NCBI RefSeq assembly: GCF_050920415.1
Contig: NZ_CP169309.1
DNA from: Escherichia coli
GTDB lineage: Bacteria > Pseudomonadota > Gammaproteobacteria > Enterobacterales > Enterobacteriaceae
Reading direction: 5' to 3' (one strand)
DNA length: 64,000 bases
The translations under genes and the position numbers were made by a program. Below the pieces are notes generated by a model. The model made no database searches and had not been told where the DNA came from. It saw only the letters and a list, made by a program, of their open reading frames with translations. Of the stretch, positions 45,133-46,292 are shown in pieces. Position 1 is the stretch's first letter; the number at the start of each line of letters is the position of its first letter.

Positions 45133-45981
45133 ATGGCGACATACCTTATTGGCGACGTTCATGGTTGTTACGATGAACTGATCGCATTGCTGCATAAAGT
45201 AGAATTTACCCCTGGGAAAGATACCCTCTGGCTAACAGGCGATCTGGTTGCGCGCGGCCCAGGTTCGCTGGATGTTCTGCGCTATGTGAAATCCTTAGGC
45301 GACAGCGTACGTCTGGTGCTGGGCAATCACGATCTGCATCTGCTGGCGGTATTTGCCGGGATCAGCCGCAATAAACCGAAAGATCGCCTGACACCGCTGC
45401 TGGAAGCGCCTGACGCCGACGAGCTGCTTAACTGGCTGCGTCGCCAGCCTTTGCTGCAAATCGACGAAGAGAAAAAGCTGGTGATGGCCCACGCAGGGAT
45501 CACGCCGCAGTGGGATCTGCAGACCGCCAAAGAGTGCGCGCGCGATGTAGAAGCGGTGCTGTCGAGTGACTCCTATCCCTTCTTTCTTGATGCCATGTAC
45601 GGCGATATGCCAAATAACTGGTCACCGGAATTGCGGGGGCTGGGAAGACTGCGGTTTATCACCAACGCCTTTACCCGTATGCGTTTTTGCTTCCCGAACG
45701 GTCAACTGGATATGTACAGCAAAGAATCGCCGGAAGAGGCCCCTGCCCCACTGAAACCGTGGTTTGCGATTCCTGGCCCTGTCGCTGAAGAATACAGCAT
45801 CGCCTTTGGTCACTGGGCATCGCTGGAAGGCAAAGGTACGCCGGAAGGTATTTACGCGCTGGATACTGGCTGCTGCTGGGGTGGTACATTAACCTGCCTG
45901 CGCTGGGAAGATAAACAGTATTTTGTCCAGCCGTCGAACCGGCATAAAGATATGGGTGAGGGAGAGGCGGCCGCGTCTTAA
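45133..45981 (+). CDS. apaH: Bis(5'-nucleosyl)-tetraphosphatase (symmetrical) ApaH
   Basis: 282-aa [19 protein letters not shown], metallophosphatase motifs. Confidence 0.95.
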
Positions 45982-46292
45982 ATCCCGTCGAGCATAAAAT
46001 CTAATGCTCCTTTAATCAACGTTCGGTGCGCGCTGGCATCGCAAAATTTCGTTCCCAGCGCGTTAACTGGAACAGTTGCAGTCTCATGCGTCATGAGCAC
46101 ATATTCTTTGCCATATACCAGTAAAAGGATTGGGTTAAGCCGTTCTGGTGGGCGAATATGGCTAAATCGTTCAATAGGTGTTCATGGAATAACGATACGG
46201 CGATTAATCTCACCAATAATGTCGCTGGTAACATCGATAACAAAGGGCAACGCGGCGTTCCTGCCGCGACTGCGGTATACCGTAAATTGCAT
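45978..46292 (-). pseudogene. ccdB: ccdB-like gyrase-toxin gene interrupted by an in-frame TGA at codon 36
   Basis: Manual minus-strand translation from ATG 46292..46290: [109 protein letters not shown]; CcdB-like start and end; absent from the ORF track because of the internal stop. Confidence 0.75.

Follow-up and report, generated by a model that had tools for sequence, protein, structure and literature searches.

The stop codons of apaH and a convergent ccdB interleave at what is very probably the left boundary of ccdO157, a known toxin-antitoxin islet that stands between apaH and folA and whose toxin gene is dead here. The window, a stretch of 64,000 nucleotides of Escherichia coli DNA, carries at 42.9-49.2 kb the E. 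coli pdxA-rsmA-apaG-apaH / folA-kefC region in which the islet lies. The overlap of the two stops is real, yet it is the ordinary boundary of a known cassette. The elements of the region, in window positions, are as follows.

45133..45981, plus strand: apaH, diadenosine tetraphosphatase, 282 aa, with a long, ancestral tail ...GEGEAAAS (open reading frame, alignment to solved structures, PGAP annotation of an identical genome).
45958..45963, plus strand: 6-bp segment GAGGGA, absent from K-12-type apaH, which makes the protein 282 rather than 280 aa (alignments).
45978..45981, no strand: TTAA, the interleaved stops of apaH (TAA 45979-81, plus) and ccdB (TAA 45980-78, minus); left edge of the islet (sequence, K-12 alignment).
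45978..46292, minus strand: ccdB (O157-type) pseudogene of 104 codons, the 37th being an in-frame TGA (translation, PGAP, Pfam, alignment).
45990..46009, no strand: weak hairpin GAGCAT-N8-ATGCTC in the 3' coding end of ccdB, the only structure near the apaH stop (fold z-score -1.3).
46295..46528, minus strand: ccdA antitoxin gene, intact, encoding 77 aa, with 2 nt between its stop and the start of ccdB (open reading frame, Pfam).
46529..46587, minus strand: islet-specific DNA upstream of ccdA, the presumed ccd promoter/operator, with the right edge of the islet at about 46587/46588 (right-junction comparison).
46588..46613, no strand: remnant of the original apaH-folA spacer, common to ccd-type and K-12-type genomes (GCCG.AATTCTA..TACAAA.; comparison).
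46614..47093, minus strand: folA, dihydrofolate reductase, 159 aa (open reading frame, PGAP).

Read directly, the plus strand of the window runs ...GCG TCT TAA ATC CCG..., with TCT at 45976-78 and TAA at 45979-81; on the opposite strand, the ccdB frame (46292..45978) ends ...FMLDGI* with its stop at 45980..45978. Bases 45979-45980 are common to both stops, and the genes overlap by 4 nt, the palindrome TTAA (45978-45981). An earlier note on this DNA had described apaH and a ccdB-like frame as converging with overlapping stop codons, and direct reading together with translation of both frames shows that description to be exact to the base. The PGAP annotations of a 100%-identical genome (strain MFDS1022581) and of O157:H7 give the identical 4-nt overlap (apaH 934..1782, ccdB 1779..2093).

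By sequence comparison, both frames are true genes rather than chance open reading frames, because each matches its family along its length. With codon 37 repaired to leucine, CcdB covers the full Pfam PF01845 profile (positions 1-101 of 101) at 107.2 bits against a cut-off of 28.6, close to the 109.3 bits of its O157 orthologue. ApaH, the symmetrical Ap4A hydrolase, shows near-complete identity across residues 1-279 to solved chains of 280-286 aa (E=5e-197 against the E. coli and Shigella ApaH structures, 9ojd and 2dfj), and a Pfam profile places the Metallophos domain in it. Past its stop, the apaH frame stays open for about 380 nt (45982-46362, plus), antisense to ccdB and ccdA, and an open reading frame at 46093..46362 (plus) belongs to this frame. 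Without the TAA, ApaH would hence gain a long tail, which is one further reason for the invariance of TTAA.

Alignment to K-12 DH1 locates the two edges of the islet. On the left, the sequences are collinear through TCTTAAA and unrelated from 45983, with homology ending at 45982/45983, a single base beyond the stop of apaH; the earlier proposal of an insertion junction adjoining the 3' end of apaH is thereby borne out. On the right, similarity resumes at about 46588 (GCCG.AATTCTA..TACAAA.TTA), some 26 nt short of the stop codon of folA (46614-46616). The intervening islet of about 610 bp, comprising the ccd promoter region, ccdA and ccdB, stands in for about 52 nt of the 77-bp K-12 spacer, including its REP hairpin, and this position, between the core genes folA and apaH in place of the K-12 REP spacer, is that of the ccdO157 genomic islet. 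Because a consensus scan of 45700-46800 returned no strict sigma-70 site upstream of ccdA, the ccd promoter is placed in the islet DNA only presumptively.

The toxin frame itself indicates where the cassette stops. CcdB keeps its native C-terminus (...GI), which aligns to the last residue of Vibrio fischeri CcdB (2kmt) and of F-type CcdB (7epi), and it aligns end to end with F-plasmid CcdB, terminal GI included; from the alignment to this terminal GI, the cassette ends at the native ccdB stop and has no 3' flank. The ccdB end (ATT TAA, reverse complement TTAAAT) and the apaH end (TCT TAA A) share TTAAA (45978-45982), a microhomology of 5 nt. Judged from the present sequence, the crossover would lie hidden within TTAAA, and the two stops would have become interleaved as TTAA through it. 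A microhomology-mediated join may thus have formed this edge, and a looser insertion trimmed by later deletion would have led to an identical arrangement. The locus shows how compact a horizontally acquired toxin-antitoxin cassette can be, reaching right up to the stops of two core genes.

The islet is decaying in this window, ccdB having been killed by a nonsense mutation and ccdA remaining intact. Codon 37 of ccdB is TGA (46184..46182), where other strains have TTA (L37 to stop), and the frame holds no uninterrupted full-length toxin open reading frame; PGAP flags ccdB of the identical genome as a pseudogene ('internal stop'), and the O157:H7 ccdB is intact. The allele is rare: of 5426 complete E. 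coli genomes, only 2 contain the identical 71-mer around the TGA. Relative to LF82 CcdB, the alignment further shows the substitutions F15L, R45H and D60Y. The C-terminus of F-plasmid CcdB holds the gyrase-poisoning residues, among which W99 is cited (PMC7232551); the corresponding position is D both in this CcdB and in that of O157. Given the nonsense codon, gyrase poisoning by this ccdB would not be expected. CcdA is encoded by an intact open reading frame just upstream of ccdB, matches Pfam PF07362 at 93.1 bits (cut-off 22.4, E=1.3e-26) and is identical to the O157 antitoxin, with a protein accession (WP_000125566.1) common to O157:H7 and LF82.

Other copies of the islet carry lesions of their own. 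Two loci (L007 1779-2080 and L032 1779-2094) hold independent ccdB frameshift pseudogenes, produced by a 13-bp deletion and a 1-bp insertion, with ccdA intact in each, and in E. albertii NBRC 107761 (L010 4196-4516) ccdB has no canonical ATG (ATA CCA for ATG CAA), an apparent decay variant. Published accounts describe ccdO157 as decaying, toxin genes dying and antitoxins persisting (PMC2654758, PMC3184786, citing Mine et al. 2009). The ccdB lesions seen here and in other strains match that picture. A 2009 abstract by Mine and colleagues is also said to recognize a class with an active antitoxin and an inactive toxin, to which the present allele would belong.

ApaH is 282 aa here and 280 aa in K-12; the alignments confirm the difference in length, which the earlier note had pointed out, and trace it to an in-frame indel. 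The window reads GGT GAG GGA GAG (GEGE) where K-12 reads GGC GAA (GE); the indel ends 15 nt 5' of the stop codon, and the placement of the 6 bp is ambiguous within GGTGAGGGAGAG (45955-45966). Downstream of it, the residues AAAS and the stop are common to the long and short forms. One pattern scan across species-representative genomes, whose yield was without E. fergusonii, E. marmotae and E. ruysiae, supplied the outgroups: ccd-free Salmonella enterica subsp. arizonae and diarizonae have the ApaH tail ...MDMGEGEAINA, a ccd-free member of the Enterobacteriaceae, UBA5654, has exactly GEGEAAAS, and the tails of Pluralibacter, Enterobacter, Kluyvera and Citrobacter equal the long form in length. 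Each of these outgroups has a REP-like spacer and no ccd. Since ccd-free enterobacteria carry the long tail, the 282-aa form is ancestral and the 280-aa form of K-12 a derived 6-bp deletion, and ApaH was left unaltered by the ccd insertion.

Across the 5426 complete E. coli genomes, the 6-bp deletion is perfectly linked to the REP spacer, which explains the association between ApaH length and spacer type that the earlier note had met. Two chimeric queries, one joining the GEGE tail to the K-12 spacer and the other the GE tail to ccd, found no genome with either combination in this set; the best full-length matches reached 91.8% and 92.1%, all with a 6-bp gap (targets 6 nt shorter or longer). 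Among 12 sampled loci, the scale of the fixed-difference analysis (the indel linkage was scored in all 5426 genomes), the long-form and REP-type apaH genes differ fixedly only by the indel and two synonymous sites, within columns 826-840 of 849; polymorphisms 5' of these columns are shuffled between the types, and folA shows no fixed differences. At 46613, the base adjoining the stop of folA, an A/C polymorphism (AAAC|TTA or AAAA|TTA on the plus strand) occurs in ccd-type as well as in REP-type genomes. The fixed linkage to spacer type that marks the apaH side is therefore absent on the folA side.

RecA-dependent recombination has a minimum homology requirement of about 25 bp. The final 24 nt or so of apaH abut heterology, and they would be too near the non-homologous spacer for homologous recombination to separate the two, so that they would be inherited with the spacer type as a haplotype; this minimum would account for the tight linkage of tail and spacer. 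The locus can serve as a textbook-scale example of DNA within about 25 bp of heterology escaping recombination, and the 6-bp coding indel, being linked to spacer type, could be used as a small typing marker.

Three spacer types cover essentially all 5426 genomes. The ccd junction is found in 2024-2025 of them (37%), 340 being identical over 60 nt; the K-12-type REP spacer, with the 6-bp deletion, in 2857 (53%); and a third insert in 539-542 (10%). This last type, represented by E. coli STEC17-183 (L004 4283-5707; also L017 and L027), carries a DUF4291 gene that starts 24 nt past the stop of apaH, and then a hypothetical gene of 155 aa and a CcdA remnant of 45 aa. We considered whether it might be a rearranged ccdO157 and rejected this, as the CcdA remnant is only 46% identical to CcdA-O157 and the flanks differ; it looks like a separate ccd-family acquisition. 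The 2009 abstract reportedly names a REP class, a ccd class and a class with a 'large DNA piece with ccdA remnant', corresponding to the three types here.

The spacer types extend beyond E. coli. E. albertii has the same TTAA junction, with ccdB and ccdA 94-96% identical to the window and apaG, apaH and folA 91-94% identical, so that the islet has diverged roughly in step with its flanks. The DUF4291 type is present also in E. whittamii and Escherichia sp. MOD1-EC7003, and Escherichia sp. E1V33 is of the REP type with the short tail. All three haplotypes thus cross species lines, through age or recombination. We tentatively suggest that the spacer together with the final ~24 nt of apaH behaves as a single non-recombining allele, of which three old haplotypes coexist, and that ccd with the long tail is ancestral in Escherichia, the REP spacer being a single later replacement that clipped two apaH codons and spread by recombination; on present comparisons this history is possible rather than probable. 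Were ccd with the long tail ancestral, the usual view, in which ccd is an 'insertion into' the arrangement of K-12, would be reversed.

The convergent genes have no DNA between them, and a terminator and promoter consensus scan of 45700-46800 reported no terminator-like site at the apaH/ccdB junction, in agreement with the earlier description of the pair as lacking an intergenic terminator. Near 45980 there is no GC-rich stem-loop followed by a U-tract after the stop, the mark of an intrinsic (Rho-independent) terminator. We asked whether the hairpin at 45990-46009 could be a terminator for both directions and rejected this: its fold z-score is only -1.3, it has no U-tract, the terminator scan did not report it, and it is not conserved, its stem being broken in E. 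albertii and in E. coli SCPM-O-B-8794. It is probably not a terminator. Because there is neither intergenic DNA nor an intrinsic terminator, convergent transcripts would have to end inside the opposite gene: those of the apaH operon would end within antisense ccdB and those of ccd within antisense apaH, with termination probably Rho-dependent or by polymerase collision. A scan of the whole window at Rfam gathering thresholds found no RNA family near apaH-folA. Elsewhere in the window, it matched only the leu leader, SgrS and a TPP riboswitch (14084-14233, 18992-19218 and 20975-21074), as expected.

These observations bear on several other ways of accounting for the locus. The earlier note had taken the longer ApaH as a sign that the ccd junction lies inside apaH and created the 282-aa C-terminus. 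Within E. coli, the 282-aa form is indeed confined to genomes with ccd or the third insert, the 280-aa form is confined to those with the REP spacer, and the fixed differences are gathered in the final 24 nt of apaH, all of which favors such an origin; we nevertheless regard it as very improbable, for an internal indel explains the length, the long tail is found in ccd-free enterobacteria, one with the identical GEGEAAAS, the closing AAAS and stop are present in both forms with K-12 homology running to one base beyond them, and the extra 6 bp resemble a unit of an in-frame GGNGAR repeat rather than foreign DNA. The alignment by which the claim was to be checked gives a divided answer, in that the same long C-terminus does occur in genomes lacking ccd, whereas the junction does not move elsewhere, homology ending at 45982/45983. 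The derived ApaH tail belongs to K-12 and not to the ccd-bearing strain, which corrects a tempting mis-inference.

The flush left edge might alternatively have arisen by deletion after insertion, a longer cassette having been trimmed up to both stop codons, and we rate this as possible but somewhat doubtful. The third insert too starts directly behind the TAA of apaH and comes to within about 6 nt of the stop of folA, limits which suggest that selection on the two core genes bounds whatever sits between them; against trimming, no intermediate with extra DNA between the ccdB and apaH stops was seen among the ~2025 ccd-bearing E. coli genomes or in E. albertii, and a one-step illegitimate join would account for the TTAAA microhomology just as well. 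An overlap selected as a regulatory design, in which convergent transcription of pdxA-rsmA-apaG-apaH against ccdB-ccdA would tune the toxin or ApaH by interference or antisense RNA, is improbable. It would draw on the want of both a spacer and an intrinsic terminator between apaH and ccdB, and on a junction unchanged in ~2025 E. coli genomes and in E. albertii. Conservation of TTAA is, however, trivial, since neither 45979 nor 45980 can change without loss of a stop codon; ccdB has been inactivated repeatedly (by the nonsense codon here and the frameshifts in L007 and L032), which fits the published neutral-decay view and speaks against a maintained function; the sole local hairpin is not conserved; and the islet is missing from 53% of E. 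coli. A regulatory use of the convergent arrangement is thus unsupported, and the ccdO157 boundary remains the reading that we adopt for the overlap. Beyond tidy annotation the importance of the locus is small, its main yield being a clean three-way census, in 5426 genomes, of a spot known to be plastic.

The locus is already known. In the literature, ccdO157 is described as a genomic islet between folA and apaH, and the K-12 apaH-folA spacer as 77 bp with a REP in a plastic region (PMC3184786, PMC7167474, PMC7232551, PMC2654758, all citing Mine et al. 2009 Genetics 181:1557 and Wilbaux et al. 2007). The islet having been described in 2007-2009, the window holds a decayed member of it with a rare nonsense allele. 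The ccdO157 of E. coli O157:H7 has the same folA/apaH site, gene order, orientation and 4-nt overlap with apaH; its CcdA is identical (WP_000125566.1) and its CcdB protein 94% identical, and the ccdB of this window differs by the nonsense codon (L37 to stop). The K-12-type spacer has the same flanking genes and shares TCTTAAA on the left and about 26 nt beside the folA stop on the right, but it has a REP hairpin (fold z-scores -2.5 and -2.1 on the two strands) where the ccd islet stands here, and its apaH carries the derived 6-bp deletion and encodes 280 aa.

The ccdAB addiction module of the F plasmid belongs to the same Pfam families (PF01845, PF07362), likewise with ccdA upstream of ccdB, and its CcdB is about 35% identical in amino acids to the one here. 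The F module is plasmid-borne, whereas the ccd here is chromosomal and its toxin inactivated; chromosomal ccd is reported not to stabilize replicons (PMC2654758). With the short tail-to-tail overlaps of convergent bacterial genes, finally, the locus has in common a 4-nt overlap that interleaves two stops (TTAA), but here the overlap traces to the edge of a horizontally acquired cassette rather than to stop-codon drift.
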